A stretch of DNA of 64,000 nt from positions 1,740 to 65,739 of the forward strand of contig CAYSJS010000001.1 of the NCBI GenBank assembly GCA_964431415.1, read 5' to 3'. Each line of letters starts with the position of its first letter. Position 1 is the stretch's first letter. This DNA is from an uncultured Candidatus Saccharibacteria bacterium (GTDB taxonomy: Bacteria > Patescibacteriota > Saccharimonadia > Saccharimonadales > JACDBH01). A program made the position numbers and the translations under genes. Positions 8,279 to 63,692 of this stretch are shown piece after piece. Under the pieces are notes generated by a model. The model saw only the letters and a list, made by a program, of their open reading frames with translations, was not told the origin of the DNA and did not search any database.

Positions 8279-8281
8279 GGT

Positions 8282-9502
8282 ATGGGTGTGGTAAAACGAA
8301 CTAAAGCACTACTGCTTGCAGCGATTATGGTAGTCGTGCCGCTGTTCGCTTCTGGTCACGCAGCCGCTGCAGGCTCGGCAAGCTTTAGTTTGAGTCCAAC
8401 CGGCGGAAGCTTTGTGAAGGGCAGCACGCTTACTGTTACGGTTAATGTATCCAGTTCAGACCAGATCAATACCGTTCAAGCCGACATAACATATGACGCA
8501 GCAAAGCTGCAGTATGCTTCGATTGACGGCTCAGGCAGCGCGTTTGACTTCCCACTGGCTGCATCTGGCGGTGGCGGTTCGGTGCAAATCGCACGTGGAG
8601 TTTCTGGTGGCGCAACAGTAAGCGGAACCAAGAAACTTGCTTCAGTTAACTTCACTGTTTTGGTGTCCGGTACTACTGCAACACTGAGTTTTGCTTCCAG
8701 CTCGGCAATCTTGTCTCCTGGCGGCAGCGGTACGACAAACGTATGGAACGGTAATACTACGGGAGGTTCATATACTTTGACAGCTCCTGTTGAAAGTACG
8801 CCTCCACCAGCTAGCGGTTCATCCGGATCTTCGGGTTCTGGTTCAAGCGGTGGAAACAAGAATAATACGCCAGCCCAGCCCTCTAAGCCGGCACAGCCTG
8901 CCGCCCCCGCACAACCTGCTTCTCCCGAGCAGCCTGTTGTAACCAGCGCCCCAGCTGCGAATACCAAGCATCTTGTGGCAATCAAAGTCGTGGACAAAAA
9001 TGACAAAACCAAAAAATCGCTGGATGTGCGCTTGAACGGGGTGACTGTTAAGACTGATGACAAAGGTATTGCTAGCTTTTCTGATGTGCCAACCGGAACC
9101 CACACGGTGACGGTATTTACCTCAAAGGATGTTTCGACGGATATGACCATAGAGGTAAAAGACGGCGACACTACTGCGGTTCAAAGCTATACATTCAAAC
9201 TACCTCAGTCATCGAGCAAAAAATGGATGTATCTAATACTTATCATCCCTGCAGCAATCCTTATTGTTGGGTTGATTCTGGTGGTACGGAGTAAACTCAA
9301 AAATAAGTTAAAAAATGTATATCAAGGAACGGCTCCGGCTGCGTCGGCAATAACCGGTGATTTTGATGCACGTGCAGCCGGTGTACATAAATCATTAGCT
9401 GAAGAGGGTCAACCAGTGGCCCCGCCTGCAACCGTAATCCGTCCAACTGTAACCAACGAGACAGCCAACGAAACCGAGCACGAAAAAGAAAACGGAGAAT
9501 AA
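8282..9502 (+). CDS. Membrane-anchored cohesin-domain protein
   Basis: Domain order: signal peptide, cohesin-like module, linker, beta-sandwich segment, one TM helix. The cohesin-like module reads SASFSLSPTGGSFVKGSTLTVTVNV...VQADITYDAAKLQY...GTKKLASVNFTV. The linker is rich in Pro, Ala and Ser (PAQPSKPAQPAAPAQPASPEQP). The TM helix is WMYLILIIPAAILIVGLILVV. Confidence 0.7.
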   Translation: MGVVKRTKALLLAAIMVVVPLFASGHAAAAGSASFSLSPTGGSFVKGSTLTVTVNVSSSDQINTVQADITYDAAKLQYASIDGSGSAFDFPLAASGGGGSVQIARGVSGGATVSGTKKLASVNFTVLVSGTTATLSFASSSAILSPGGSGTTNVWNGNTTGGSYTLTAPVESTPPPASGSSGSSGSGSSGGNKNNTPAQPSKPAQPAAPAQPASPEQPVVTSAPAANTKHLVAIKVVDKNDKTKKSLDVRLNGVTVKTDDKGIASFSDVPTGTHTVTVFTSKDVSTDMTIEVKDGDTTAVQSYTFKLPQSSSKKWMYLILIIPAAILIVGLILVVRSKLKNKLKNVYQGTAPAASAITGDFDARAAGVHKSLAEEGQPVAPPATVIRPTVTNETANETEHEKENGE

Positions 9503-9504
9503 GA

Positions 9505-44780: not shown

Positions 44781-46187
44781 TTACGGATATAGTACTGATA
44801 CATCCGGGCCCTTGCTGCCTTTTTCGTATTCTATAAGCCCATCGCTAGAACGCGTCCAGGCTTCTACCGCAGGCGTTACGACCCGCCAAGACTCACGTAT
44901 CTCATCCGCGGTCGCAAACAAGGTATGATCACCCCTAAAGGCATCTACAAGTACCCGCTCGTACGCCGTCGGCTTGAATTCTACGCCCTCAAAAGCGGTT
45001 TTATAATTAAAGTTCATTTCAACGTGCTGCACTTCGTCATCAAAACCGGGCTTTTTTACTCTTAGACTCAGTTCTATTCCTTCCTTGGGGAAGATACGAA
45101 AACTTAAGACGTCATGATGCGGCGAGTTTTTGGTCGGCTTGAATACGACATTTACTTCGCTGACTTTATGCTCAAGAGCCTTGCCTGAAGAAACAATCAG
45201 GGGTACATCGTGCCACCGCTCATCGCTTGACGTAAATCGAAAGGCCGCAAACGTCTCTATGCGGGAATCTGGATTAGACACCTCATCCTTGTAGCCAACG
45301 TACTGCCCCCTTACCGCATCCGTATGCGGATCGGCCTGGCTCAGCAGTTTAAGCGCCGCCAGCTTTTTGTTGTGTATGAGATCCGACGTGAGTTCGTCCG
45401 GCTGCTCCATAATAATAAGCGCCAATATCTGCAGCAGATGACTCTGAATAAGATCGCGTACCGCACCGGTTTGTTCATAAAACGCAACCCGGCCTTCTAT
45501 ATCTAAACGTTCGTTGGCAATTACCTCTATGTATTCGATGTAGTGCTTATTCCATAGCGGTTCAAAAATTGGGTTACTGAACCGAAAGGTGAGGAAGTTT
45601 TGGACAGTTTCTTTGGCGAGATAATGATCAATCCTGAAAATCTGCTCCTCAGAGAAATATTGAGCCGTTCTTTTTATGAGATCTTCAGCGTCTGCCAGGT
45701 TGCCGCCAAAAGGTTTTTCGGCCAACAGACGCGTTTGTGCGCTGCCAGACTGCGCAACTCCATGCAAGCCGTTTTGTCCTAGCTTTTCAATAATCTGTCC
45801 TGCTGCTGCCGGCGGCACAGACAGATAAAATAACCGGTTCATTGGCAGGCCATGCTCTGCTTCCACGGAATCTAAGTGCTGCTTAAGCTGCTGATAGGCT
45901 GCGTCATCCGCCACGTCCATATGACGAAGCGTTAAGCGCTTCTTTAGCTTTTGTACTGCTGCTGGGTCGCATATGCCATCCACCTCACTCACGCACAGTT
46001 CAATGCTCGCCAGGAGATCGTCTAATTGCATATCGCCTCTGGTAAGGCCAATAATCTCCGTGTGGTCGTCCAACATGTCATACTTTACGAGATGGTACAG
46101 AGAAGGAAGAATATACCGTTTAGCAAGATCGCCCGTGATCCCAAAGACGACTAATATGCCCGGTTCTACCACCTTTTCTGAACTCAT
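44781..46187 (-). CDS. zwf: Glucose-6-phosphate 1-dehydrogenase
   Basis: FGITGDLAKR, EKPFGGNLADAEDL and RIDHYLAKE motifs. Confidence 0.93.
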   Translation of the reverse strand: MSSEKVVEPGILVVFGITGDLAKRYILPSLYHLVKYDMLDDHTEIIGLTRGDMQLDDLLASIELCVSEVDGICDPAAVQKLKKRLTLRHMDVADDAAYQQLKQHLDSVEAEHGLPMNRLFYLSVPPAAAGQIIEKLGQNGLHGVAQSGSAQTRLLAEKPFGGNLADAEDLIKRTAQYFSEEQIFRIDHYLAKETVQNFLTFRFSNPIFEPLWNKHYIEYIEVIANERLDIEGRVAFYEQTGAVRDLIQSHLLQILALIIMEQPDELTSDLIHNKKLAALKLLSQADPHTDAVRGQYVGYKDEVSNPDSRIETFAAFRFTSSDERWHDVPLIVSSGKALEHKVSEVNVVFKPTKNSPHHDVLSFRIFPKEGIELSLRVKKPGFDDEVQHVEMNFNYKTAFEGVEFKPTAYERVLVDAFRGDHTLFATADEIRESWRVVTPAVEAWTRSSDGLIEYEKGSKGPDVSVLYP

Positions 46188-46189
46188 GG

Positions 46190-47149
46190 CTACGCTTCCT
46201 CTTTTTTTGAGCCGGTATTTAAAACCTGACCACTGGCTATAATCTCTTCCACATTTACCGCATGTCCGCCAAATTTGTTCCTGAGCGCCGCAAGCAGCTT
46301 AGTAGAAAAGTTCGTTGTGCCATTCTGGCTCTCCAGTCGCACATCAAAAGACGCCTGTATAGCCGCCAGAAGAACGCCTAATGCTTGTGCGGTTTCTAAC
46401 GCCCAGCGAGCTTCGCCACTTTCTGCCACAACTCCATCGTTACCGGTGAGCTCCGGATTTTCCCTGAGGACATCACGGCACAGCTCATTCAGCCAAGATG
46501 TTACGACGCTATGATGCTGCCAGACATCACCAGCCGCACCTAGGTCTATATTTTGGTATGGGCCTTCTTTTAGCAGCCTATATCCTTCTGCTAGGGACTC
46601 CATCATGCCGTATTCTACTGCGTTATGTACCATTTTTACGTATTGTCCGGCTCCGCTGTCACCGAAGCGAAAGTAAGCACCTTCCGGCTGAGCGAGCGTC
46701 TGAAATACTGGTTCTACCGCATTAAATGCAGCCTCTTCGCCGCCGATCATCATTGAAAAGCCGTTTTGGTACCCCCAGACCCCGCCACTCGTACCACTGT
46801 CTAAAAGTGTTGAACCGGCAGCAGCCACTTTTTCGGCACGCTGCCTGGTAAGACGATAGTCCGAGTTGCCGCCATCTATTATAATGCTCCCTTTTGGTAC
46901 TATGGCCAGCCATTCGTCTAACTGGGTATCTATGACATCAGCCGGGACCATAACCCACACAACAACCTGGGCGTCACCGAACGCGGCCACAGCATCCGCC
47001 TTCTGATAGGCAGCGGTCGCCCCATAGGTAACCGCCTCATCGACCTTATCTTTGCTGCGGTTGTGAGCGATCACGGTATGACCGCCTTCACTAAGCTTAC
47101 GCGCCACCTGCATTCCCATACGTCCCAGTCCGGCAACAGCTATTTTCAT
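46190..47149 (-). CDS. gnd: 6-phosphogluconate dehydrogenase, short (about 300 aa) decarboxylating type
   Basis: MKIAVAGLGRMGMQVARKL Rossmann N-terminus and GAGQYVKMVHNAVEYGMM block. Confidence 0.85.
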   Translation of the reverse strand: MKIAVAGLGRMGMQVARKLSEGGHTVIAHNRSKDKVDEAVTYGATAAYQKADAVAAFGDAQVVVWVMVPADVIDTQLDEWLAIVPKGSIIIDGGNSDYRLTRQRAEKVAAAGSTLLDSGTSGGVWGYQNGFSMMIGGEEAAFNAVEPVFQTLAQPEGAYFRFGDSGAGQYVKMVHNAVEYGMMESLAEGYRLLKEGPYQNIDLGAAGDVWQHHSVVTSWLNELCRDVLRENPELTGNDGVVAESGEARWALETAQALGVLLAAIQASFDVRLESQNGTTNFSTKLLAALRNKFGGHAVNVEEIIASGQVLNTGSKKEEA

Positions 47150-48288
47150 GAATTTTCCTTTGTGATTATGTTTGCCACCGTGCTCGCAACCCGAGGATCA
47201 AAAACACTGGGGATAATGCAGTCCGGCGTTGGATCATCAACTAAAGAGGCAATGGCTTTAGCGGCCAATAATTTATGGTTATCGGTAATTTTTCCAACCT
47301 TATTATCGAAAGCACCTCTAAATATTCCTGGAAAAACCAATACGTTGTTTACTTGGTTCGGAAAGTCGCTTCGCCCGGTTGCCACCACAAGCGCACCGGC
47401 ATTTTTTGCGTCTTCAGGCATAATTTCCGGAACAGGGTTCGCCATTGCAAAAATAATGGGGTTAGGCGCCATGGTTTTAATCATGTCACCGGTCAATAAC
47501 CCAGCCTGTGAAAGCCCGATGAATACATGCGCTCCTTTTAGAGCATCTTCAAGACTTCCATCTATCCCAGCAATGTTAAGATCAAGCAGCTTCTTTTTTT
47601 CGTCGTTTAGGTCGGTGCGCTTAGGACCAATAATTCCTTTGCTGTCCACCATCAAAATATCGGTAGCTCCGGCTTTTTCAATCAGCCGCGCAACTGCCGT
47701 ACCTGCGGCACCAGCGCCCACAACCACAATCCTGCATTCCTCCAGTTTATAGCCACCACTTTTGAGTTTTAATGCGTTATAAAGAGCGGCGAGGGTTACG
47801 ATAGCGGTTGCGTGCTGATCGTCATGCATAACCGGTATATTCAGGCTGGCTTTTAGCCTATCTTCTACTTCAAAGCAGATAGGTGCCGCAATATCTTCAA
47901 GGTTGATACCTCCAAAACTTGGCGCAATTGCTTGAACGGCAGCAACAATTTCGTCGGCCGTGTGGACATTTAAAACAATCGGCACCGCATCAACCCCGGC
48001 AAAGTGTTTAAAGAGCATCGCTTTGCCTTCCATCACCGGCATCGCACCTTCTGGCCCAATATCACCAAGCCCCAGCACTGCAGAACCGTCTGAAACAATT
48101 GCTACAAGATTGTTCGTCCAGGTATAGTCACGCAGGGTTTCGGGATGCTGTGCAACATAGCTCGAGACCGCTCCCACCCCCGGGGTATAAAAAAGTTTTA
48201 AGGTTTCCGGCGTCACCTCGCCGCGCAGCCCGGTAGTAATCTTGCCTTTTAGGTCTTTGTGAAGTTTTAGTGCAGCTTCTTCGTTCAT
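47146..48288 (-). CDS. NAD(P)-dependent malic enzyme (short form without a PTA domain)
   Basis: YTPGVGAVS, DGSAVLGLGDIGP, FGGINLEDI and VVGAGAAGTA motifs. Confidence 0.88.
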   Translation of the reverse strand: MNEEAALKLHKDLKGKITTGLRGEVTPETLKLFYTPGVGAVSSYVAQHPETLRDYTWTNNLVAIVSDGSAVLGLGDIGPEGAMPVMEGKAMLFKHFAGVDAVPIVLNVHTADEIVAAVQAIAPSFGGINLEDIAAPICFEVEDRLKASLNIPVMHDDQHATAIVTLAALYNALKLKSGGYKLEECRIVVVGAGAAGTAVARLIEKAGATDILMVDSKGIIGPKRTDLNDEKKKLLDLNIAGIDGSLEDALKGAHVFIGLSQAGLLTGDMIKTMAPNPIIFAMANPVPEIMPEDAKNAGALVVATGRSDFPNQVNNVLVFPGIFRGAFDNKVGKITDNHKLLAAKAIASLVDDPTPDCIIPSVFDPRVASTVANIITKENS

Positions 48289-48953
48289 AGTGCTCCTATT
48301 TGGTTATTGAATATGGTAACGCTGGGTAAATGTCGGAATATCTGGGCGGGCTGTTCATACAGAGGCACCATCTCATCGCGAAGGCGCTGCAGTGCAGGCA
48401 TCTTTTCTGGGCCGAATGCTCCCGCAAACGCTTCTTTAACATGCGACAGGGCAAAGGGAGTAAGCGTGATTCGCCGATACGTACCGGCGTCGTACCCCAC
48501 CACCCATTTTTCGTCCGCGGTAGCAGCGGGCGACTGCGGCAATATACCGGCAGTGTGTCCGTCTGCCCCCATCCCAAAGAACCCGATGATATGCTCGGCA
48601 TCTGTAAATGCGCGCGCATATGCGTCTTCGGCGTTTTGTACCGTTGTGTCAAAATCTTGGCCGGTAAGCATATCTTTAAACCGAGCACTACTTGGATCAA
48701 ACCCGGCCTTAATAAGCTGAGCATAGTTTGAATCCGGGTGACCGGGGCTACCGTAGCGTTCGTCGGTCAGCATGACCGTAAGGTGTGCGGTTAGTTCGGC
48801 TGCGATGTTATCCATAACGGCAACTGCAATCGCAATATTTGAGCCGCCTGGTATGAGCCACAGCACTTTTCTTTGCTGCGTCAAAGATTCATTTAGCGCC
48901 GCAAGTAATGCACGTTCTAGGCCTGCCGTTCCCTCACTTTTTTCAAACTGCAT
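48285..48953 (-). CDS. pgl: 6-phosphogluconolactonase
   Basis: LIPGGSN..., MLTDERYG and GADGHTAGILP motifs. Overlaps the malic-enzyme gene by 4 nt. Confidence 0.75.
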   Translation of the reverse strand: MQFEKSEGTAGLERALLAALNESLTQQRKVLWLIPGGSNIAIAVAVMDNIAAELTAHLTVMLTDERYGSPGHPDSNYAQLIKAGFDPSSARFKDMLTGQDFDTTVQNAEDAYARAFTDAEHIIGFFGMGADGHTAGILPQSPAATADEKWVVGYDAGTYRRITLTPFALSHVKEAFAGAFGPEKMPALQRLRDEMVPLYEQPAQIFRHLPSVTIFNNQIGAL

Positions 48954-51653: not shown

Positions 51654-51944
51654 TCATGCAGTTTGCCTATACTCAACGACCATATCGCTAGCTGTCATAT
51701 ATTCCTCCAATGTCCACTGTAACGTGTCGGTGTTGAGAGCAAGCTTAAAATACGCTTGCCCAAGTATGTCGGCGATAGAAAAGTGGTGAACAAGCAGATC
51801 ACCCTGTTTCGTCTTATGCCAAAAATCTATTTTTCCCAGCGCGTATTCCTGACCGTTCCAGTTCAGACGATGCGGCTTGAAGCTACGGCTTTTTGCGTTG
51901 TAGAACCATATAACACTTACGGGTTCATCTAAACTTTCCCTCAT
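51654..51944 (-). CDS. Unknown 96-aa protein, paralog A
   Basis: Shares the pattern W..Q.Y.LG...FW....G..LVHH......G.Y.F.LA..T..L.W.LE with the 52245-52556 product. The ATG at 51944 follows AAGGAGG. ATGA overlap with the upstream small ORF. Confidence 0.6.
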   Translation of the reverse strand: MRESLDEPVSVIWFYNAKSRSFKPHRLNWNGQEYALGKIDFWHKTKQGDLLVHHFSIADILGQAYFKLALNTDTLQWTLEEYMTASDMVVEYRQTA

Positions 51945-52132
51945 AATGACATGCACCTCCTTGTCCTGCTTCTTGGCAGAGCCAAGAACCCGCCAAGGAT
52001 TTTGCCATATCGCGGCGTTGCCGATTGTGCTGCTCGTTCACCGTATACTAAATACGCCTCACTGCGCTGCTCATCGGCGCCTAGCGCTATTGGCAAATGC
52101 ATGCCATTCTGCGCGAAAGTACTTTCTCTCAT
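51941..52132 (-). CDS. Hypothetical 63-aa protein coupled to paralog A
   Basis: Same 32-nt RBS and first-codon block as paralog A (MRES...). Its stop overlaps the start of paralog A. Confidence 0.4.
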   Translation of the reverse strand: MRESTFAQNGMHLPIALGADEQRSEAYLVYGERAAQSATPRYGKILGGFLALPRSRTRRCMSL

Positions 52133-52244: not shown

Positions 52245-52556
52245 TCATAATGCACCTACCAATCTCTGACTGTTCCAAAGCGGCGCCCGGCTAGGCGTAA
52301 GTGGCGTAGCCTTTTCGAGCTTCCAGGTAAGATTTTCCGTTTCCATGGCAAGCTGAAAGGTGTACGTACCGGCTGTATCACCCACTGTGTAGTGATGCAC
52401 TAACGCGTTGCCTTTGTGTTCGGCATACCAGAACTGCACACCGCCTAAATCATAATTTTCATCCTGCCAACGCAATTGCACAGGCCTGGTGTAACCGTCT
52501 ACAAAAGAGAAGTGAACTTCAACCCCAGAACTAGAATTTTTATTTATTTCCCACAT
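52245..52556 (-). CDS. Unknown 103-aa protein, paralog B
   Basis: The ATG at 52556 is 5 nt from GGAGG. Paralogous to the 51654-51944 product. Confidence 0.6.
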   Translation of the reverse strand: MWEINKNSSSGVEVHFSFVDGYTRPVQLRWQDENYDLGGVQFWYAEHKGNALVHHYTVGDTAGTYTFQLAMETENLTWKLEKATPLTPSRAPLWNSQRLVGAL

Positions 52557-52599
52557 AGAAACCTCCAAATATAACTAACCTTCTATGGCTCATGCAACT

Positions 52600-53028: not shown

Positions 53029-53802
53029 ATGTCTCCTAAAAAACGCGACCCAAAAGACGAAAATACCAAGAAAGAGCGAAACGTCAAGAAGGCTCTTGTA
53101 GAGTTACGTCAGACGGCACCCAGCAGCGAATTTAGTACAGATTTTATTGACAGAATGCTATTCCATATGGGCGGTCGTTCTTACGACAAATATGGCGCAG
53201 TAGCCGAAAGATACCCCAAGAAAGAGCAGGCGTTACAAAAGATAGTCGATCGTTTTACGAAATATTTGTACACACGCAACCGCAAGTTCCTTATAGACGC
53301 AGCAAACTTTAGCATGATTGAATTCATGCACCCCAGTATAGAAGGAGCATTCTTTGCCGGTACTGATTCAGATGCAAGTCCGGGCAGAATTATGGATGGC
53401 GGCGAACAAAGCGCCAGAAGGAACCAGGATATTGAGCAGGCAGTCACCGCCAAGCCCAACCCAATTAAAATAGTTATCGAGACAGAAACGCCCGACTCAG
53501 AGTATCAAGTATCATTCTTTCAGGGCATGATCAATAGAATGGGGGTATCATTTGCTAAATATGGTGCCGTTAAAGATGGCTATCCTTATGATGTAAATGC
53601 AGCCGAAAGCATACTGCTGAGAATCAAGAAATATGAAGATTCACAGAACACAGAGTTCCTTATAGACGTAGCTAACTTCTGTATGATCGAGTACATGTTC
53701 CCGTCATTGGTAAGGACGCACTATAATCCTATAGAAGACCTGAGTACGGTCGGCAGGGCTGCGGTGAGTAGTGTTGTTGCGCAAAATATCGCGACGATAT
53801 AG
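53029..53802 (+). CDS. Unknown 257-aa protein made of two tandem homologous helical domains
   Basis: Internal repeat: FIDRMLFHMGGRSYDKYGAVAERYP...NRKFLIDAANFSMIEFMHPS versus FFQGMINRMGVSFAKYGAVKDGYP...NTEFLIDVANFCMIEYMFPS. Confidence 0.6.
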   Translation: MSPKKRDPKDENTKKERNVKKALVELRQTAPSSEFSTDFIDRMLFHMGGRSYDKYGAVAERYPKKEQALQKIVDRFTKYLYTRNRKFLIDAANFSMIEFMHPSIEGAFFAGTDSDASPGRIMDGGEQSARRNQDIEQAVTAKPNPIKIVIETETPDSEYQVSFFQGMINRMGVSFAKYGAVKDGYPYDVNAAESILLRIKKYEDSQNTEFLIDVANFCMIEYMFPSLVRTHYNPIEDLSTVGRAAVSSVVAQNIATI

Positions 53803-53852: not shown

Positions 53853-53928
53853 AGGGGAGTAGCTCAGCTGGTAGAGTACCGGTCTCCAAAACCGATGGTC
53901 GCAGGTTCGATCCCTGTCTCCCCTGCCA
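53853..53928 (+). tRNA. tRNA-Trp (anticodon CCA), CCA encoded
   Basis: Acceptor AGGGGAG/CTCCCCT, anticodon arm CCGGT-CTCCAAA-ACCGA (one C-A mismatch), T arm GCAGG-TTCGATC-CCTGT. Confidence 0.88.
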
Positions 53929-53939
53929 AGCATAAGCAC
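53920..53939 (+). repeat. Copy 0 of the direct repeat (tRNA-Trp 3' end plus 11 nt): cccctgccaagcataagcac
   Basis: Read directly. Also forms the left arm of a hairpin, caagcataagcac/gtgtttgtgcttg (53927-53964). Confidence 0.7.
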
Positions 53940-53998
53940 TTTGACAATGGAGTGTTTGTGCTTGCAAGTTCTATTGCATACTGGTAACATTCATCCTT

Positions 53999-54289
53999 AT
54001 GGCAACACATGAATCAGTAAATGCCGCAATTATAGCGATAAATACATATCAAAAAGATCATCCAGTTAGAACAGCAACTTGGGCAGGCCAAGTTATTGGG
54101 GTAGTAGGAGTTAAGGCTGAAGACGGAACCCCAGGATATGGTATAGGCATAAGTGAATCTACTATGAGGCCACATACAGCCCTCTATGACAAAAGAATAT
54201 CTAGAATCTTGGCGAGTAAAGGACTAGCCGATGTATCGGTTCATGTTATAGAGGTGGATCCTTATTATTTGGATCCTAATTGGCAGTGA
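53999..54289 (+). CDS. Hypothetical 96-aa protein
   Basis: ORF only. Confidence 0.45.
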   Translation: MATHESVNAAIIAINTYQKDHPVRTATWAGQVIGVVGVKAEDGTPGYGIGISESTMRPHTALYDKRISRILASKGLADVSVHVIEVDPYYLDPNWQ

Positions 54290-54357
54290 TTTCTAATCCT
54301 TATATTGAATAAAGTTCCAAAAAGAGTCGACTAGCTCCTGCCAAATATAAGTAGTTT

Positions 54358-54387
54358 AAAAAGAACTTCGTCTGGAGTTCTTTTTTG
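54358..54387. terminator. Bidirectional terminator between convergent genes
   Basis: agaacttc / ggagttct form an 8-bp stem with one G-U pair and a 4-nt loop. Flanked by an A-run and a T6 run. Confidence 0.6.
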
Positions 54388-54390
54388 TTA

Positions 54391-54927
54391 TTATTTTACC
54401 AATAAAAAAGTAGATACGTTCCAAATAATAACTAGCAACAATAAAGGAGATTCCCAATACCCAGCTTTTAAGATACTTCTTAGTACATATTGCACTATTA
54501 AGAGGAGGACAGTAGAAACTATTATCACAATACTGATCGTGTTATTGATGGTATGAATTTGAAAAGTCAGTAAACACATACCCAGAGTTATTAAGGCAAC
54601 ACTGGCTTGAACTAGTTTTCTGTGAAGAATAATATGTTTTGTTACAACTATAGAAGAAGCTATCAAGAGAATGCTGCCAGCCAACATTAAACTACTGATT
54701 GCTTGTTTATGTTCAATGTTCAAAGTCTCAATAATATAGAGCGCATAAAAAAGCTGAAGGGTAGTAAATACAGAAATTACAACTATAAACCTTGTTTTAC
54801 TCCGCTTGCTCTTAGCTAAGGCCGAGATAGGTTTTTTTAATAAACTATATCTTTTATCTAACGATGCAAGCCATATTAAGCTCAAAACAATAAAGAGTAT
54901 ATTAAAAATACTAAGATAAACAAGCAT
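54391..54927 (-). CDS. Hypothetical polytopic membrane protein (178 aa) in a visibly AT-rich segment
   Basis: Five to six hydrophobic helices with Ile/Leu/Lys-rich, AT-biased codons. Confidence 0.5.
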   Translation of the reverse strand: MLVYLSIFNILFIVLSLIWLASLDKRYSLLKKPISALAKSKRSKTRFIVVISVFTTLQLFYALYIIETLNIEHKQAISSLMLAGSILLIASSIVVTKHIILHRKLVQASVALITLGMCLLTFQIHTINNTISIVIIVSTVLLLIVQYVLRSILKAGYWESPLLLLVIIWNVSTFLLVK

Positions 54928-55037
54928 TACGGATATAATACCAAAGCATCAGATAATGCTTAAGTTTCTTGCTATAACTACAATCTTAAACATTTCAAGC
55001 ATGTTTTTCTTAACAATGTTCCTTCTCATTCCTGCTT

Positions 55038-55057
55038 GCCCTACCAAGCATAAGCAC
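55038..55057 (+). repeat. Copy 1 of the tRNA-Trp 3'-end repeat: gccctaccaagcataagcac
   Basis: 18 of 20 nt identical to copy 0. Confidence 0.65.
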
Positions 55058-55130
55058 GTTGTGCAAGAACAAAGCATTTATGGCATAAGTTATGCTTTAC
55101 TATTAAGCCAGTATATTTTATAATATAAAT

Positions 55131-55523
55131 ATGTCACAAAATAGCTGGATACCGATGGGCGATTCTGAACGTTTATTCGACCTGACCGAAGGGGCGATTG
55201 TTAGCCATTTAGCTTTACCTCAAGGTACTGATATGGATCGAATCCTGGTGCATGGCGGCCGCCTAGAGAGATTAACGCGGTGGGCAGGCGCAAAACAATT
55301 AGTTTTAGCCGGGGCAGATTTAGGATACGAGCGTCCCGATATGGCCGATATAGATGCCGCCGCCGATGGAGTCACAACTTTAATAGGACTCAGAAAACAG
55401 CCGAAACAAGATTTATCGAGCCCTCAATACATCGACGACAACAATCCGGTTCGCAGAAACCCAGTTGACGGCTTGATGCGAGGAACGAACCAAATACCAA
55501 GCATGGTATTTGGCAGCTTATAA
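55131..55523 (+). CDS. Hypothetical 130-aa protein
   Basis: ORF only. Overlaps the next ORF by 14 nt. Confidence 0.45.
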   Translation: MSQNSWIPMGDSERLFDLTEGAIVSHLALPQGTDMDRILVHGGRLERLTRWAGAKQLVLAGADLGYERPDMADIDAAADGVTTLIGLRKQPKQDLSSPQYIDDNNPVRRNPVDGLMRGTNQIPSMVFGSL

Positions 55524-55974
55524 AGCAGATTCGTTGGTATTGCACTTAGATAAAGCCGGTTTGGCTGACCGAGTTAAAGATGACCCAAAAAATGAAAAAT
55601 CATTTATAGACGAAACGATTTGGGCCAAACATTTAGATAAAGAGGTTCGAAACGGTATTCTCACAGGAGCAGAAGCTAGATACGTTGGCGATCATCGGCT
55701 GAACGCCGCATTTCTTGCATTAGCTAATGCCTATTACATTAAGGACATCTACACTATGTTCACCACAGGCCAGCCGACAGGCTGGGGCATGGGTGTATTA
55801 GCCGCGAAGACTGTCCAGATGATGGTAGGCACTTATCGCATCAGAACAGGAGAAGCGACAGCGAGAGATCACAACTGGACAGCACTCATCATTCCAGAGT
55901 ATCGAACAGACAGGTTACTGATGACTGCGTTATGCTCTAAAATGGGCGGTAAAGTAATAAAAGCTGCTGCCTGA
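55510..55974 (+). CDS. Hypothetical 154-aa protein (TTG start)
   Basis: ORF only. Could be the 3' part of a frameshifted single gene together with 55131-55523. Confidence 0.4.
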   Translation: MAAYKADSLVLHLDKAGLADRVKDDPKNEKSFIDETIWAKHLDKEVRNGILTGAEARYVGDHRLNAAFLALANAYYIKDIYTMFTTGQPTGWGMGVLAAKTVQMMVGTYRIRTGEATARDHNWTALIIPEYRTDRLLMTALCSKMGGKVIKAAA

Positions 55975-55999
55975 AATTGTTACAAAAGCACTCGACTAA

Positions 56000-56019
56000 C
56001 CCCTGCCAAGCACAAACAG
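56000..56019 (+). repeat. Copy 2 of the tRNA-Trp 3'-end repeat: cccctgccaagcacaaacag
   Basis: 17 of 20 nt identical to copy 0. Confidence 0.6.
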
Positions 56020-56063
56020 CATAGAAGAGGACATCGTTAGGTCTCTTTTGGTATTATTAAGCT

Positions 56064-56459
56064 ATGCAAAACGGTCGGCTCATACGGCTCATTAGTTCAG
56101 AAGATCATGACATTTCCCGTGATGAATTAGTGAATATCATTAGAAAAACCGGCACAGACAGGTATGACCGGAGGCGGAAACATATATTTTTTGATTTTTA
56201 CGGCAAACACGACTTTGACTTTTTTGCCGGCAGATCTAGCACCGAGAGTCTCGAGGAAGATATTAAGGAAGCGGTACGTTTATTCCCCGAAAGAACCAAA
56301 GGCGACAGAGGCAATGCGGTACATCCAGACATCGTGATTATCTACGACAGCAGCAAGTGCACCGAACTAGACGGCGTCTATGATTATAAAAGCGGCAGCG
56401 ACTGTTTTAAGTTCAAAACAAACCCGCTCGATGCTTTGGTTGAGGTGAGGGTTGTTTAA
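56064..56459 (+). CDS. Hypothetical 131-aa protein
   Basis: ORF only. Its last 52 nt are repeated at 57703-57754. Confidence 0.5.
   Translation: MQNGRLIRLISSEDHDISRDELVNIIRKTGTDRYDRRRKHIFFDFYGKHDFDFFAGRSSTESLEEDIKEAVRLFPERTKGDRGNAVHPDIVIIYDSSKCTELDGVYDYKSGSDCFKFKTNPLDALVEVRVV
56401..56452 (+). repeat. 52-nt direct repeat, copy 1 (3' end of the 56064-56459 gene)
   Basis: actgttttaagttcaaaacaaacccgctcgatgctttggttgaggtgagggt. Confidence 0.8.
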
Positions 56460-57565: not shown

Positions 57566-57702
57566 ATATAATCCGTATTTAAGTTTATACTGTCATATTA
57601 CCATAACCATCTTTAACACAATATGCATGAGGATAAACAGAACACTTACATTATCTTGGCTGACACCAGCAACCCACAAACAAGATGCCGCTTTACATAA
57701 AA

Positions 57703-57754
57703 ACTGTTTTAAGTTCACAACAAATCCGCTCGATGCTTTGGTTGAGGTAAGAGT
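57703..57754 (+). repeat. 52-nt direct repeat, copy 2 (4 mismatches), inside a short remnant ORF (57627-57809)
   Basis: actgttttaagttcacaacaaatccgctcgatgctttggttgaggtaagagt. Both copies translate to CFKF.TNPLDALVEVRV. Confidence 0.8.
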
Positions 57755-57856
57755 AATCCATTCAGAAAGAAAACACCAGACACAGTCATCCCCGCTTTCA
57801 CAAGGCTAGACAATACCTCTTTTGTTTAAAACAAACGGCATATGTATTCTTGAACT

Positions 57857-58693
57857 ATGTCAAACCCCAATGCCTACTTACAAAACCTTCATGCCCGGCT
57901 GGAAGAACTTCGGACTGGAGATAGGGCATACCAACTTGCTAGTGACGCAATAGTAGAAACCCTTCCCTATGTTCACGCAAACGCCGTTGAAACGGAAAAT
58001 CAACGTTTGCTCGACGTAGGCTGTGGCCTGGGTTTTTTATCTGTAAGACTGGCAGAACGGGAAAACGCCGAAGTGGTAGGCATAGATCCATCTGCCGAGG
58101 CTATTGAACTAGCAAGAAAAGAGCATGCACATGTTACTAATGTGAGGTATTACACCGCAGCAGCTGAAGAGTTTCCGGAGATGATGAAACGCCTTGGAGA
58201 AGAACCATTCGACAGGGCAGTTTTAAACATGGTACTACACTCTTTAGATGATAAAGCTTGTCTCGACGCCCTAAGCGGCGTACACCGAGCATTAGTTCCT
58301 TATGGAGGGGTTACACTTGTTGTACCCGACGAACTTTGGACAATGAGGAAGCTCATACAGCACGCCCAGCGCCAGGGAATGGAGCGCGACGAAGGCATGG
58401 CTTGGGTACGTGACATGCTTGGCGAAAAATCGGTCGAAATAGATATAGCAATACATGGTCATGAGCCATGGCCAGAACCTATTACAATATACAATCGTAG
58501 CGTTCAAGATTATGGCAGTTTGCTGAATGCTGCGAACTTTGGTTTCGAAATAGCTTTTGAAACCGAAACGGACGGAGTAGCAACGAGGACGACAAAGGAA
58601 GTCGACTACTGGGAGTTTAAAGACTACTTGAGTGGATTTGAACTAAGCATACACGATAGACACATTCTTGTAAGTGCGGCATGTCCTAAATAG
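57857..58693 (+). CDS. Class I SAM-dependent methyltransferase
   Basis: Motif I LLDVGCGLGFLS and post-I VVGIDPS. Confidence 0.75.
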   Translation: MSNPNAYLQNLHARLEELRTGDRAYQLASDAIVETLPYVHANAVETENQRLLDVGCGLGFLSVRLAERENAEVVGIDPSAEAIELARKEHAHVTNVRYYTAAAEEFPEMMKRLGEEPFDRAVLNMVLHSLDDKACLDALSGVHRALVPYGGVTLVVPDELWTMRKLIQHAQRQGMERDEGMAWVRDMLGEKSVEIDIAIHGHEPWPEPITIYNRSVQDYGSLLNAANFGFEIAFETETDGVATRTTKEVDYWEFKDYLSGFELSIHDRHILVSAACPK

Positions 58694-58789
58694 CTATGAA
58701 AAGCATTGAGTAGCGGTGCAGTCTCTTGGCATAGGCCGATTCGGAACTTTATTGCGCTAAACACATTCGTCAGATACCATACACTTATA

Positions 58790-59488
58790 ATGAATATAAC
58801 GAACAAAACAATCCTTATCAGTGGCGCTAGCGATGGTATAGGCAAATCTATAGCTCTCGCTTTGTCTAAATGTAATGTCAAACTCATACTTCTTGGCAGG
58901 GACGAAGCTAAGCTCTCTGACGTAAAAAACCAGTGTGAAGCCAATGGCTCGCAAGCAGAATACCACGCTTTTGATATCACCAACGGTGCAGCGCTTGAAG
59001 CAGCGGCCAATAACATAAAACAAAATGGCTCGGTAGATGTGATCATTAACAATGCAGGCATTTGGCACAAATCCACCCCGCTCGGGCAACTTGATCCAAC
59101 CCTTATTGAAAACGTTATCGCTACCAACCTTACTGCTCATATGCAGCTCACGCGGCTTTTTATCGACGACATGAAAAGCCAGGAAACGGCCATCATAAAT
59201 ATCGTCTCTAGCGCCGGAATGCAGGGCAAAGCAGGCCGAACAGCATACGCTGCCAGCAAGTATGGCGTACGCGGCTTTACTGAAGCGCTCAGGGACGAAA
59301 CGTATGGTGATCCGATTCGAATAGGTGCGGTATTTCAAGGCGGCACCAACACGCAGATGTTCAATAAAGCCGACGAACAGATGAACCTAGAAAAATACAC
59401 CAACCCGGATGACCTGGCTGATGTGATCGCATTTATGCTCACGCGCCCGCCAAAACTATGGATCAACGAAGTCCACGTGAGCTACTAA
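58790..59488 (+). CDS. Short-chain dehydrogenase/reductase (SDR) family oxidoreductase
   Basis: ISGASDGIGKS (TGxxxGxG-type), NNAG and YAASKYGVRG (YxxxK) motifs. The ATG at 58790 was chosen. Confidence 0.85.
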   Translation: MNITNKTILISGASDGIGKSIALALSKCNVKLILLGRDEAKLSDVKNQCEANGSQAEYHAFDITNGAALEAAANNIKQNGSVDVIINNAGIWHKSTPLGQLDPTLIENVIATNLTAHMQLTRLFIDDMKSQETAIINIVSSAGMQGKAGRTAYAASKYGVRGFTEALRDETYGDPIRIGAVFQGGTNTQMFNKADEQMNLEKYTNPDDLADVIAFMLTRPPKLWINEVHVSY

Positions 59489-59638
59489 GATGCCGCTTGA
59501 TATTGGGGTAGGACTACTGCTCGGGGCTGATAGCTGCCGTAGTATTTGCGTACTAACTCGTACTTAGGCGCGGGTTATGCTTGCAACACGAACACTTTAT
59601 GCGCTTTAATACAATCCAAACTATAAAAGGGATAAACC

Positions 59639-60028
59639 ATGGTAGAAATTTTTGAGCAAGGTCTTCCACAGATACCAGGAACTGTTAACAACGAAAACGT
59701 ACTGGTCGAAGCATCGGCAGATACAGCAGTCGAAGCAACAGTTTCGAGAAGGCCTACGCTTACTGAGCTACACCGGATCGCCGACGGGCTTCTGGAAGCA
59801 GACCCAGAGTCTCCTTACGTCCAACAAACCGCTAGCTCTCTGCTCCGCGCGGTAGAGCTGATAAAAACTTTTGGCCACCAAGGGAGCAGCGACGCAGAGG
59901 ATCTCCCCGTAGACGAAGCCGTATGTGCCCAAGGCATTCAAAGATTCCTTCATAGAGCTACCATCGAGGAAATGAGGGCATCCCATAGCGCCAAACCAGC
60001 ATTCCCATACGACATTTTTGACCTCTAG
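59639..60028 (+). CDS. Hypothetical 129-aa acidic protein
   Basis: ORF only. Confidence 0.45.
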   Translation: MVEIFEQGLPQIPGTVNNENVLVEASADTAVEATVSRRPTLTELHRIADGLLEADPESPYVQQTASSLLRAVELIKTFGHQGSSDAEDLPVDEAVCAQGIQRFLHRATIEEMRASHSAKPAFPYDIFDL

Positions 60029-60099
60029 AAGCGGACCCTGGCTCGTTACTCCGATTTCTTTCTTTATTTACTTTATGGCGCCCCATTCAAGCATTAAAA

Positions 60100-60921
60100 A
60101 TGCTTAAGGCTATTGCAATATTGTTCGATTGGCCAATAATAGGCAGCATGAAAACACAACATGTACTTACTTCAATAAAACGGGCGATCATATATTCTGT
60201 TGTGGTAGGCGGATCCTTGTTCGCATACAGCCACTATATTAGCGATAAACCGGTGGATTTCGAATGGGCGTGGTATGCAGCCGTCATTACATCATCGATG
60301 ATAGTAGTGGCAATCAGCGCCGTTTTGTGGAATAAAGTTTATAAAAAGTATGAATTTCTTACACAGGAGCATGGCTTCGACATAGACAACGCTTTAGTGG
60401 ACTACTATGCAGCGGATTGGGGGAAAAGTGTAATACCGCCAAAAAGCGCGGTAAACTCTGCCATTGAGCTTATCTTTGCAGAGCAGAACGGCGTGTTAAA
60501 ATTTATCGAAAAGTACCGAGATTCACAAAAAGTTATTAATACTTTTGAACTTCCGCTAACCGCTATCAAAAAAGTGCGTCAACGTCCCTCGACGACAGGC
60601 GATGGTGGTGGCGGAGCTTATGAACAGCTACTTTATATTGAGGGATTGTCGGAAAAACTCAGTGATACTACTCGATCACATGATCATTTAGTATGGGGGA
60701 ATATTGTACGAGACGACTTTAATATGGTGCATGCATCTGCGTTAATTTCAATTGGCAGGAACACAAGCACGCAAGCCTGTAAAAGAATTCTCATAAAGGG
60801 TATGGTACAAAAACTTAATATAGACTTTTCAACAAGACATAGCGGCATCCGTAGAGAGACGACATTTGAAAAAGAACATTTAAACGGCCAGGCCGACTTC
60901 TGGTCCGATTTGCGTCCGTAA
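60100..60921 (+). CDS. Hypothetical protein with two N-terminal TM helices (273 aa)
   Basis: ORF plus hydrophobic segments. An ATG at 60148 is an alternative start. Confidence 0.5.
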   Translation: MLKAIAILFDWPIIGSMKTQHVLTSIKRAIIYSVVVGGSLFAYSHYISDKPVDFEWAWYAAVITSSMIVVAISAVLWNKVYKKYEFLTQEHGFDIDNALVDYYAADWGKSVIPPKSAVNSAIELIFAEQNGVLKFIEKYRDSQKVINTFELPLTAIKKVRQRPSTTGDGGGGAYEQLLYIEGLSEKLSDTTRSHDHLVWGNIVRDDFNMVHASALISIGRNTSTQACKRILIKGMVQKLNIDFSTRHSGIRRETTFEKEHLNGQADFWSDLRP

Positions 60922-61118
60922 TGAATTAATTTTATACGATATCTCCCTTATACCAACACTTACGCATGCCCCTCGTATTCAAAAACGTTGAAGTGCTGCT
61001 TAAAGAAATTGACAAAATAGCCCGCGCCTTACGATCAGCGAGTTATGCCAAAACGGCGTAATATGCAGGGCTTTTTTGCTTATAACGAATATGCGAAAAA
61101 CAGTAATCATGTAGAATA

Positions 61119-61715
61119 ATGCTTATGGCGCTGCAAAACATACTAGACGAAGCATCGGACTATAAATTAATAGATGCCGTATCGTATGTTCGGCCAGCGG
61201 TTTTGGACCTTGGCCTATCACCAGAGCAGATAGCTTATGTGCTCCTTTCGAGAAACTTCTACATCTCCGCACTCTACGCGGGAGTAGTAGACTACCGCGC
61301 CTCATTTACAGCGCTCAGCAATAGTGATATGCATCGGCTCACGCAGCATATACACGAAATGGGCGTCAATATCGAAGAACAGACAATCCGCACGATACTC
61401 CTGAAAGAATCGGAGTATGCGAAAAGCATCAAAGCGGTACCGGACAATTATGTTGTTTTTGATCTGGACGAAAAGGAGTTGGAGGGACAAAAAGAACATG
61501 TAGTACCCCAAGAACTTCTTGGACAAGCCACGCCATTTTCGCGCATGGATGAAATCTTCCATTCTACAAAAGAGACACACGAAAAGACCGCTATAGAAGA
61601 TGACGCCACGCAACATGCAGCACTAAAATACATTATCGCCGGCGTCTTAATCGCGCTAATTGACTTTTTCTATATTATTCCAGGCCTAACCGATTTTATC
61701 GCGAGGAGATTATAA
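61119..61715 (+). CDS. Hypothetical 198-aa protein with a C-terminal TM helix
   Basis: ORF only. Tail-anchor-like ALKYIIAGVLIALIDFFYIIPGL. Confidence 0.5.
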   Translation: MLMALQNILDEASDYKLIDAVSYVRPAVLDLGLSPEQIAYVLLSRNFYISALYAGVVDYRASFTALSNSDMHRLTQHIHEMGVNIEEQTIRTILLKESEYAKSIKAVPDNYVVFDLDEKELEGQKEHVVPQELLGQATPFSRMDEIFHSTKETHEKTAIEDDATQHAALKYIIAGVLIALIDFFYIIPGLTDFIARRL

Positions 61716-61716
61716 A

Positions 61717-62145
61717 ATGAGCGTAGAAGACGTAAAGACGCGCGGTGAAATACGAGCTAAGAAGGCGTTTTATTCTTTCCTGGGGGTAATTCTTGTTATT
61801 ACTGTACTGGCAGTAGCAACCAACATATCCCACACTCGCTATTCCTTAAAGATACAAGAAGCAATTCCGAAGTTTTGCCCGGGAGCGACAAACTTAAAAG
61901 TGCACGTAAAATTTCATCGACGTCAATATTATGTAGAGAGTGTGGACTGGACTATGCCAGACCATGCATATATCCACTGGGAGCCATCTCAGCAGAAGAT
62001 GCCTAAGCCAATGCTACAAGCGATAGTTGACTGTCAACAGTATTGGGATAAGTGCGAAAAACAAGATCTGCAATTTGTATGCACAAGGAAAGACGGGCTA
62101 GAATACACCGAATCGATAGACGATTATATTCTTAATTATTTATAA
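61717..62145 (+). CDS. Hypothetical 142-aa protein with an N-terminal TM helix and a Cys-containing ectodomain
   Basis: Starts 1 nt after the previous stop. Confidence 0.5.
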   Translation: MSVEDVKTRGEIRAKKAFYSFLGVILVITVLAVATNISHTRYSLKIQEAIPKFCPGATNLKVHVKFHRRQYYVESVDWTMPDHAYIHWEPSQQKMPKPMLQAIVDCQQYWDKCEKQDLQFVCTRKDGLEYTESIDDYILNYL

Positions 62146-62319: not shown

Positions 62320-62982
62320 ATGGAAAAAATTGTGCCTGAAAAACCATGCTTAATACTCTTGTACGGCTTTCCTGGAGCAGGTAAAACATACTTTTCTCGC
62401 CAGTTCTGCGAAGAAGTTCAGGCAGCTCATCTAGAAGAAGATCGCATTCGGTTTGAGTTATTCGAGAAGCCGCGGTACACCAAGCAAGAAAACTACGCGC
62501 TTAGCCGCATTATGGAATATATGACCGGGGAGTTTTTGACCGCAGGCGTGAGCGTAGTGTACGACACAAACGCCATGCGCTTAAGTCAACGGCGAGCATT
62601 GCGAGAAATCGCCCGCAGGCAAAAAGCCGAGGTGCTGGTGGTATGGTTCCAGCTCGATGCCGACACAGCATTTATCCGCAACTACAAACGCGACAGACGG
62701 CGTCTAGACGATCGCTTTGCCGCAGGCTATAACGCCGATCAATTCAAAGAACTGGCGGCTCACATGCAACAACCCGAACCTACCGAAGATTTCGTAGTGA
62801 TAAGCGGCAAACACACCTATGTCTCCCAGCGCAGTGGCGTGATCAAAAAACTCTCTGACATGCGCGTCGTTCGCCCCTCGGCGGCAATGCATAAAATGAT
62901 CAAACCCGAGCTTGTGAATCTTATTCCGAACGGACAAAGACAACACCACCCCGACGGACGCCGGTCTATTACCCTTAACTAA
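62320..62982 (+). CDS. P-loop ATPase/kinase (AAA_33 / zeta-toxin-like fold class)
   Basis: Walker A in LLYGFPGAGKTYFSRQF. About 170-aa core followed by a basic tail. Confidence 0.6.
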   Translation: MEKIVPEKPCLILLYGFPGAGKTYFSRQFCEEVQAAHLEEDRIRFELFEKPRYTKQENYALSRIMEYMTGEFLTAGVSVVYDTNAMRLSQRRALREIARRQKAEVLVVWFQLDADTAFIRNYKRDRRRLDDRFAAGYNADQFKELAAHMQQPEPTEDFVVISGKHTYVSQRSGVIKKLSDMRVVRPSAAMHKMIKPELVNLIPNGQRQHHPDGRRSITLN

Positions 62983-62984
62983 TT

Positions 62985-63692
62985 ATGTCGAGTAAAGACG
63001 TCGAACTAGACGGCATAGGACTGGTTCGCATTATAAAGCGACGCGGGAGCCGTACTATTCGACTTACGTTTGACGAAAAGGGCGATGTGCGCGTCAGCAT
63101 ACCATACTGGATACCATTTAGCTCGGGAGTAGCTTTTGCCAAAGAACGGAAAGAATGGATAATAAAGCATCGCCCGGAGCGTGGTAGACTTTTTGCATCA
63201 GGGGACAAGATCGGCAAAGCTCATCATATGACGATCGAGGGCTCACCTGTGTACACCACCGTACAAGTGCGACTCAAAGGCAGCGAGATCCTGGTAAAAC
63301 ATCCAAGTTCAAAGGCTGCTAACGACCCAAGTGTGCAGGCCGCGGCCGAAAGAGGAGCCAAGAAAGCCCTCCTTAAAGAAGGTAACCGACTACTGCCGCA
63401 GCGTCTGAGCATTCTTGCCGAACAACACGGATTTCGGTTTCGCTCTGTTACGGTAAAGCAACTAAAAACCAAATGGGGCAGCTGTAACCAAAATCATGAA
63501 ATTACTTTAAATTACTACCTGCTGCAGCTCCCGTGGAACTTAATAGACTATGTACTTATCCATGAGCTCGTGCACACCGAGCACCTCAATCATAGCGAGG
63601 CATTTTGGCAGCGGTTTGAACAAGCGCTCCCGGGTGCCAAAAAAATCCGCAAAGAACTCCGCACATATAAAACATCCGTTATTGCAAAGTAG
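62985..63692 (+). CDS. YgjP/DUF45-type zinc metallohydrolase
   Basis: KWGSCN followed by the HExxH motif in VLIHELVHTEHLNHSEAFW. Confidence 0.75.
   Translation: MSSKDVELDGIGLVRIIKRRGSRTIRLTFDEKGDVRVSIPYWIPFSSGVAFAKERKEWIIKHRPERGRLFASGDKIGKAHHMTIEGSPVYTTVQVRLKGSEILVKHPSSKAANDPSVQAAAERGAKKALLKEGNRLLPQRLSILAEQHGFRFRSVTVKQLKTKWGSCNQNHEITLNYYLLQLPWNLIDYVLIHELVHTEHLNHSEAFWQRFEQALPGAKKIRKELRTYKTSVIAK

Follow-up and report, generated by a model that had tools for sequence, protein, structure and literature searches.

In a 64-kb stretch of the genome of an uncultured Candidatus Saccharibacteria bacterium (assembly GCA_964431415.1, contig CAYSJS010000001.1), referred to below as the window, the 3' end of the tRNA-Trp gene is present in four direct copies, counting the gene's own end, and these four repeats delimit three units that carry one gene each. 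We interpret the repeats as the probable attachment-site (att) scars of serial integration at the tRNA-Trp 3' end, followed by decay of the integrated DNA. All negative results on window DNA given below apply to these 64 kb.

The tRNA-Trp(CCA) gene is intact and lies at the upstream end of the array (Table 1). The sequence CCCCTGCCAAGCATAAGCAC, which consists of its last 9 nt and the 11 nt downstream, is found exactly at 53920-53939, and the initial annotation of this DNA had reported two further copies, at 55038-55057 (18/20, 2 mismatches) and 56000-56019 (17/20, 3 mismatches). Both are real. No other site was found on either strand, and matches occurred in 0 of 100 dinucleotide-preserving shuffles, against three hits within 2.1 kb in the actual sequence. 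The three repeats had been taken to bound two cassettes; the repeats were confirmed but a fourth, weaker copy of the tRNA-Trp end, CTCCTGCCAAATATAAGTAG, is located at 54325-54358 between two convergent genes, so that there are three units. This copy, junction 2, is the best non-training hit in the window of a profile built on the other three junctions only (E = 5.6 × 10−4). In leave-one-out profile searches every junction was the top non-training hit, with E-values from 5 × 10−5 to 0.014 (junction 4 was recovered at 1.2 × 10−4). All copies are direct and lie solely 3' of tRNA-Trp. The locus thus shows the repeat signature of a tRNA island, with three displaced direct copies of the tRNA 3' fragment, above chance.

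The copies are degenerate. The core identity to the tRNA-Trp end is 62%, 82% and 62% for copies 2, 3 and 4, and only stretches of 8-14 nt are strictly identical to it. Like junction 4, junction 2 keeps only the last 9-10 nt of tRNA-Trp. These two junctions are alike over 48 nt (71%), including a left arm without any likeness to the tRNA, which reads GTTCCAAAAAGAGTCGACTAGC in junction 2 and is also given, as the shared arm, as GTTnCAAAAnnAnTCGACTAnC. Since junctions 2 and 4 share this element-side arm, units 1 and 3 appear to derive from related elements. Two other att-like candidates were rejected. At 57655-57682, a putative fifth copy proved by gapped alignment to be part of a diverged 3' coding remnant of a gene of the 131-aa family described below, and no significant att copy follows that remnant. 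An inverted match at 58876-58901 (26 nt, 77% complementary) lies inside the dehydrogenase gene, with E ≥ 0.45 for all profiles, and is attributed to chance.

Beyond the tRNA-derived core, junctions 2-4 have a module of about 90 nt in common, and each junction leads on to a hairpin, then to a run of T and, before the following gene, to a stretch resembling TATTATTAAGC. The module could be a locally spread intergenic signal (terminator, processing site or promoter block), its tRNA likeness being incidental or reflecting a shared RNA-processing signal. Such a signal would explain the hairpin, T-run and AT-rich, -10-like stretch found between each copy and the next gene, and several relatives do have A(G/A)(C/T)ATAAG-like sequences just after tRNA-Trp. 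However, the whole-module profile detected no additional copy in the window, the rest of the island included, and the hairpins are short and terminator-like, with unremarkable folding z-scores (-2.5 to +1.0) and sequences that are not conserved between copies. Moreover, the repeat copies found in relatives follow their own acceptor stem, and local duplication of the tRNA end accounts for this, whereas a signal common to all of them would not. We consider an intergenic signal highly improbable as the origin of the repeats. Neither pseudo-tRNA bodies nor other RNA families were found in the island.

The spacings between junction starts are 415, 703 and 962 bp, and each interval is a single-gene unit. 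What had been annotated as cassette 1, with two convergent genes and their own bidirectional terminator, does contain the convergent genes and a bidirectional terminator-like hairpin, but not as a single cassette: it amounts to two units, because the fourth copy splits the convergent genes. Cassette 2, in turn, had been described as two overlapping open reading frames (ORFs), 55131-55523 and 55510-55974, and is in fact one frameshifted gene. A 260-aa homolog, P0002, aligns first to frame +3 (55182-55502) and then to frame +1 (55492-55968), placing the frameshift near 55492-55502. The frameshift is not an assembly error, since it is identical in independent assemblies. P0002 is the only homolog of the unit 3 gene among 5.8 billion proteins; at the level of loci, homologs of this gene lie beside pentose-phosphate genes in contig L105 and behind nusG in contig L053, and no significant att-like flanks were found around either of them. 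None of the unit genes matched Pfam, PHROGs or NCBIfam. The units occupy both strands, the 178-aa gene and the 361-aa gene further downstream being on the minus strand, and have their own promoter-like and terminator-like signals. The G+C (GC) content of the att-delimited and 361-aa units is 31-45%, against 49-50% in the conserved flanking genes.

Table 1. Position of the tRNA-Trp gene, the junctions, the units between them and the remainder of the variable island (window coordinates).
Feature	Position	Strand	Remarks
tRNA-Trp(CCA), intact	53853..53928	+	ARAGORN; Rfam RF00005, 64.4 bits; putative integration target, attB/attL side
Junction 1, reference copy	53910..53943	+	last 19 nt of tRNA-Trp + 15 nt; then hairpin ~53924-53966
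Unit 1 cargo, 96-aa ORF	53999..54289	+	singleton cluster; no family match; unit GC 39%
Junction 2, fourth copy	54314..54361 (core 54325-54358)	+	leave-one-out E-value given in the text
Bidirectional terminator-like site	54358..54385		12-bp hairpin, T/A runs on both sides; between the convergent genes
Unit 2 cargo, 178-aa hydrophobic (membrane-type) ORF	54391..54927	-	no family match; unit GC 31%
Junction 3	55028..55061	+	82% identical to junction 1 over 34 nt, T-loop to +15
Unit 3 cargo, one frameshifted gene	55131..55974	+	split into 130-aa and 154-aa ORFs; GC 45%
Junction 4	55979..56026 (core 55990-56023)	+	last 9-10 nt of tRNA-Trp kept
131-aa ORF, small Saccharibacteria family	56064..56459	+	~40 homologs, 53-85% identity
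52-nt direct repeat, left copy	56401..56452	+	3' end of the 131-aa gene
361-aa ORF, N-terminal hydrophobic segment	56480..57565	-	near-orphan; unit GC 40%
Diverged, displaced 3' remnant of a 131-aa-family gene	57655..57754	+	last 52 nt 92% identical to 56401-56452
Rest of island: methyltransferase, short-chain dehydrogenase, four ORFs without family match	57857..62145	+	no att copies detected
Conserved distal boundary: AAA_33 kinase (62320-62982), YgjP-like protein (62985-63692)	62320..63692	+	conserved at 70-71 of 80 loci

We compared the locus with 80 species-level loci retrieved by a NusG protein search, nearly all of which are labelled Candidatus Saccharibacteria or Saccharimonadales. Between 53029 and 62145, no gene has a homolog at the locus in these 80 related species, with two weak exceptions, namely the unit 3 gene in L053 (38% and 27% identity) and the dehydrogenase in L084 (26%). 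Only the AAA_33 kinase and the YgjP-like protein are conserved across the 80 loci. The island ORFs called in L022-L024 are all singletons, and therefore none of them is common to any other relative. The stretch behind the tRNA-Trp 3' end is a hypervariable spot. In L024, the closest complete genome, the upstream genes are collinear with the window from glucose-6-phosphate dehydrogenase (G6PD) through a DinB polymerase to two paralogous ORFs; tRNA-Trp lies beside the kinase on the opposite strand, and 2.3 kb of unrelated genes follow its 3' end. The 5' side of tRNA-Trp is also variable, since a 257-aa ORF immediately upstream (53029-53802) has no homolog at the locus in the 80 related species. 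This ORF contains an internal duplication (53259-53333 versus 53628-53702, 71% DNA identity). The strand of tRNA-Trp relative to nusG also varies: it is plus in the window, in L023 and in eight others, and minus in L022, L024 and about 40 others, which suggests that tRNA-Trp was inverted repeatedly together with the island.

Within the species, about 16 samples yielded contigs; their identity to the window is 99.95% or more, and they agree in a single arrangement at all junctions that they span. They were retrieved by searching for exact copies of u257, of the methyltransferase and kinase proteins and of two near-identical variants, and nothing below 99.95% identity was returned; the same look-up with the 107-aa core protein returned nothing. 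Comparison of strains and relatives, which had been proposed as a check on the movement of the cassettes, is only half informative: the same-species contigs are nearly identical and effectively one clone, and the other species are without the island genes. As these contigs represent a single clone at low coverage, the fixed arrangement is weak evidence against ongoing movement. As a separate observation, several independent low-coverage assemblies (among L001-L020) end at 55061-55358 or at 57713-57795. These contig ends are near junction 3 and near the right copy of a 52-nt repeat described below, and could reflect low coverage or unresolved strain variants.

We aligned the tRNA-Trp 3' end of each of about 50 relatives to the 9 kb behind it and compared the scores with those of shuffled controls. 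A partial direct repeat scoring above every shuffled control was found at nine loci besides the window. It spans 34 nt in L085, at a distance of 2.07 kb, and 23 nt, perfectly matched, in L030 (0.79 kb); the repeat is 1.55 kb away in L070, 0.85 kb in L065 and 68-161 nt in L044, L031, L032, L081 and L094. The relatives' repeats are duplications of the local tRNA rather than a shared motif, since the copies track the acceptor-stem sequence of their own tRNA. The islets that they enclose encode ParE/ribbon-helix-helix (RHH) proteins with a histidine phosphatase, an HD-domain protein, a NUDIX protein or proteins of no recognised family, and no recombinase.

Recombinase genes were found at the same site in three other relatives. 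In L022, the closest by NusG, a gene for a 535-aa large serine recombinase (550-2157) abuts the tRNA-Trp 3' end and converges on it. L068 has the gene for a 583-aa large serine recombinase at the same place and in the same convergent orientation, and in L063 this position is taken by the catalytic end of a tyrosine integrase, likewise convergent. Beyond the tRNA, no homology was found between the window and these three recombinase-bearing loci, and the far ends of the L022 and L068 elements were not found within the available contig DNA. The family of the L022 recombinase has at least 327 members (E < 1 × 10−20) of about 513 aa, among them proteins P0019-P0138 and those of contigs L111-L114; NCBI labels some members as coming from Saccharibacteria or Saccharimonadales metagenome-assembled genomes. 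In most of the 40 C-termini that we inspected, the ORF ends in the tRNA 3' end read antisense (...VAATGIEPVT, ...GTGFEPAT). Family members abut not only tRNA-Trp but also tRNA-Met (L112, L113) and tRNA-Asn (L106, L107). In L112, two serine-recombinase elements whose recombinases are 60% identical lie in tandem at tRNA-Met(CAT) (4110-11431). Between them is a partial att copy of 18 nt (5650-5667), which agrees at 17 of 18 positions with the tRNA end extended by 12 nt. In L107 (1881-2388) and L106 (414-921), only the C-terminal 155 residues of the recombinase remain beside tRNA-Asn(GTT), 65% identical to those of L022. Accretion at a tRNA gene and recombinase decay are therefore both documented in contigs carrying the L022 recombinase family, by the L112 tandem and the L107 remnant respectively. 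In L111, a rolling-circle-type replication-protein gene and a 51-aa ORF lie just upstream of the recombinase. Judged from this sequence context, tRNA-Trp is a real integration site in the clade.

The geometry of the repeat blocks suggests that two types of site may be represented. At junction 3, as in the islets of L085, L030 and L070, identity to the tRNA starts in the T-loop. In junctions 2 and 4 only the last 9-10 nt of the tRNA are included, which is nearer to the arrangement at the serine-recombinase site of L112. In the sublocation classes that Williams is said to have described in 2002, att blocks begin either in the T-loop or within the final 6-10 nt, the T-loop start reportedly being usual for tyrosine integrases. 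The start points may thus suggest which kind of enzyme was responsible for each junction. The core of junction 2, CTCCTGCCAAAT, matches the tRNA-Trp end of L022 at 12 of 12 positions and that of the window's own tRNA-Trp at 9 of 12. A perfect fit to an L022-type allele is expected if the core is a displaced or imported tRNA end.

No recombinase accompanies the units. The initial annotation had recognised no integrase in the window, and this observation holds: no serine or tyrosine recombinase or fragment of one was detected by phmmer, tblastn and a box-II motif scan of all ORFs, or by Pfam searches of 30 ORFs. One candidate remnant beside the tRNA was considered, as the L022 C-terminus gave a tblastn hit at 53992-53867 (E = 2 × 10−7). 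The hit consists mostly of antisense tRNA, and a profile of the non-tRNA part of the family C-terminus misses 53929-53995, so that the remnant was rejected. It had also been proposed that the units form an integron-like or satellite-like array, which our data do not support. Between 53801 and 58000, no match to the attC core sites of integrons (RYYYAAC ... GTTRRRY) came up in a pattern search, and no signal of an intI-type tyrosine recombinase was detected in the window. Integron cassettes are mostly promoterless and on the same strand, whereas here some genes are on the minus strand and the units carry their own expression signals. No phage or satellite hallmark gene was found among the unit genes with Pfam, PHROG and NCBIfam.

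The repeats and their context thus agree with the successive site-specific integrations proposed initially: the repeats are direct, lie only 3' of the tRNA and delimit low-GC segments, and the same signature as well as recombinases occur at this site in relatives. In the scenario that we favour, mobile elements, probably larger and recombinase-bearing when they entered, would have integrated site-specifically into the tRNA-Trp 3' end one after another. Each arrival would have supplied the new 3' end of tRNA-Trp and displaced the older copy, with its element, distally. Recombinase and maintenance modules would have been lost later, leaving single cargo genes with their own terminator and promoter-like signals between degenerate att copies. 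Signs of decay include the frameshift in unit 3, the cores that are only 62-82% identical to the tRNA end and, in a relative, the truncated recombinase of L107. The units are most likely fixed, decaying chromosomal DNA at present. Between the decayed islets and the cassettes mobilised in trans that had been offered as alternatives, decay is the better fit to the frameshift, the degenerate cores and the fixed arrangement.

Several observations weigh against this scenario. Three successive units have each come down to one gene (415-962 bp) and yet have kept both flanking att copies. Random deletion would usually take att too, because in the intact serine-recombinase elements the recombinase gene overlaps the tRNA-proximal att. 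Furthermore, degeneracy does not rise steadily with the distance from the tRNA, junction 3 being better preserved than junctions 2 and 4; no fragment of a recombinase was detected anywhere in the window; and a recombination site carried by all the cassettes would also account for the common module of about 90 nt. Single-gene units could result from recombinase-mediated deletion through secondary sites inside the element. They could also be true mini-cassettes moved in trans.

Movement in trans would mean that the units are recombinase-less cassettes that are still mobilisable, each through a site of about 50-90 bp, by a recombinase whose gene lies at another place in the genome or is brought in by another element. 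Streptococcal cis-mobilisable elements and staphylococcal pseudo-SCC elements, both discussed below, behave in this way, as do integron cassettes in a looser sense. The size and content of the units, single genes in 415-962 bp with their own terminator and promoter-like signals, would suit such cassettes, and so would the module shared by junctions 2-4 beyond the core and the non-tRNA left arm common to junctions 2 and 4. Recombinase-less islets are also present between tRNA-Trp repeats in at least four other species, and the phylum contains a large family of tRNA-targeting serine recombinases. A junction-3-like sequence behind a homolog of the 131-aa gene in contig L117, detailed below, adds a weak signal. 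On the other hand, the cores are degenerate, whereas recent recombination would leave identical ones, and one cargo gene is frameshifted. The contigs from about 16 samples reveal no junction polymorphism, the homologs of the unit 3 and 131-aa genes located elsewhere have no significant att-like flanks, and no recombinase was detected in the window. The cargo genes are near-orphans and therefore give no sign of circulation. We consider mobilisation in trans unlikely. Its more specific form, in which a serine recombinase of the ~513-aa family, acting in trans, would insert single-gene units with a site of about 90 nt at tRNA-Trp and excise them again, is quite unlikely.

The att-delimited units form the proximal 2.1 kb of a variable island of about 8.4 kb that extends from 53929 to about 62300. 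Past the end of the window, the YgjP-like gene is followed by secE-nusG-rplK-rplA, as seen in contigs encoding exactly the same proteins. Next to junction 4 lies the 131-aa ORF, whose homologs are located elsewhere in other genomes, in L115 and L116 behind an AddA-like helicase and not at a tRNA; no significant att-like flanks were found around the homologs in other genomes. A second duplication involves this gene: a 52-nt direct repeat (92% identity; 56401-56452 and 57703-57754), with gapped homology extending to about 100 nt, flanks the 361-aa gene. This insert has the same geometry as those at the tRNA: it lies in the 3' end of a gene and itself supplies the replacement end. The 361-aa ORF has one homolog, 26% identical, among 1.84 billion cluster representatives, and a search of viral contigs returned no relative of this gene or of the L022 recombinase.

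This second duplication bears on another possible origin of the repeats, namely that foreign circular or linear DNA, taken up for example by natural transformation, was integrated by Campbell-type or homology-facilitated recombination and left direct repeats. The target of the 361-aa insert is the 3' end of a protein gene and not a tRNA, as such a process would allow, and the repeat copies differ from one another in the manner of diverged alleles, the junction 2 core fitting the L022-type tRNA perfectly. However, 20-34 nt at 62-82% identity are very short for RecA-dependent recombination. In addition, the repeat blocks start in the T-loop or in the last 6-10 nt, like recombinase att sites, the recombinase genes of relatives are found at exactly the tRNA-Trp 3' end, and junctions 2 and 4 have a common element-side arm. 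Homologous integration is thus a very unlikely explanation of the array, and we retain site-specific integration followed by decay.

Other observations concern related contigs and the remainder of the window. Contig L117 (GCA_035905205.1) encodes the closest homolog of the 131-aa gene (85% identical), and about 70 nt further on carries TCATCCTGCTAGCCTTGCCAAACATA (549-574), which resembles junction 3 and the tRNA-Trp 3' end. This match beats 200 of 200 shuffles, and the signal is weak, as about 0.17 hits of this type are expected per contig with a weight matrix of the tRNA end. From its sequence, this 3.5-kb contig, in which small ORFs follow one another, may represent another att-delimited array; further att-like copies in it (1396-1415 and TTAGCTACCC motifs) were not significant. 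Upstream of the tRNA-Trp region, the window contains two small paralogous ORFs without a Pfam family (51654-51956, 100 aa; 52245-52568, 107 aa), a pair that is kept in L024, L028 and L031. The segment between rpmG and the tRNA-Trp region holds genes for G6PD, 6-phosphogluconate dehydrogenase (6PGD), malic enzyme and 6-phosphogluconolactonase (44781-48953). Among the 80 loci, L024 alone has homologs there, of G6PD, 6PGD and the lactonase but not of the malic enzyme, and the same three genes lie beside the intact homolog of the unit 3 gene in L105, a Joint Genome Institute (JGI) contig. At 7046-9502, a Big_7 and dockerin gene adjoins a cohesin-domain gene, a cellulosome-type interaction pair in a Saccharibacteria genome.

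Saccharibacteria genomes measure about 0.9 Mb, and the literature on how these bacteria acquire genes is sparse; our literature search on gene acquisition in Saccharibacteria returned nothing specific. In this clade, foreign DNA has entered repeatedly at the tRNA-Trp 3' end; large serine and tyrosine recombinases occur at the site and the gene sets of the closest species differ, so that the locus offers a concrete and checkable place to study gene flux in episymbionts. The finding alone leaves current understanding unchanged, since element decay is expected to leave recombinase-less units between scars. If the mini-cassettes did prove to be mobile, they would constitute a tRNA-anchored functional analogue of integron or staphylococcal cassette chromosome (SCC) arrays in an ultra-small episymbiont genome.

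Recombinase-less units in tandem have precedents. Cis-mobilisable elements (CIMEs), left by elements of the ICESt1/ICESt3 type, and pseudo-SCC/SCC composite islands, located at the 3' end of rlmH (orfX), are such cases; the SCC recombinases are large serine recombinases, like those of the relatives studied here, and experiments have shown that a resident or incoming recombinase can mobilise CIMEs and pseudo-SCCs. The layout is similar, with recombinase-less tandem cassettes at the 3' end of a conserved gene and direct att copies between them. In contrast to these systems, the att copies described here are degenerate, and no mobility was seen in the assembled contigs. The array also resembles integron arrays in its short, mostly one-gene units, recurring site and fixed anchor, and differs from them in that no intI or attC was found, genes are on both strands with their own signals, and the recurring site is a copy of a tRNA end.

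The closest resemblance is to islands at tRNA genes. According to the principle used by Islander (PMC4383910), displaced 3' tRNA fragments mark islands, and the incoming element supplies the new tRNA end. Like the tRNA islands and islets of that work, our locus has an intact tRNA at one end, partial direct copies and foreign, variable content: the tRNA boundary, the repeat, the foreign composition and the variation in presence and absence are all observed, and the integrase is lacking. Unlike typical tRNA islands, it consists of one-gene units of 0.4-1 kb, with four att copies within 2.1 kb. In the tycheposon islands of Prochlorococcus (10.1101/2020.12.28.424599), successive integrations at tRNA genes likewise leave partial tRNAs and degenerate remnants. 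Shared with these islands are a streamlined genome, the displacement of older elements inwards by newer arrivals, which our scenario would entail, the use of tyrosine and large serine recombinases and, in L111 only, a replication-protein gene beside a serine recombinase. The phylum is different, tycheposon hallmark genes are absent from the window, and the recombinases were compared by type only. The very small size of the units and the Saccharibacteria setting appear to be little described. The locus itself, which fails the features of integrons and phage satellites, is a tRNA-anchored genomic island with att scars, of a known kind.

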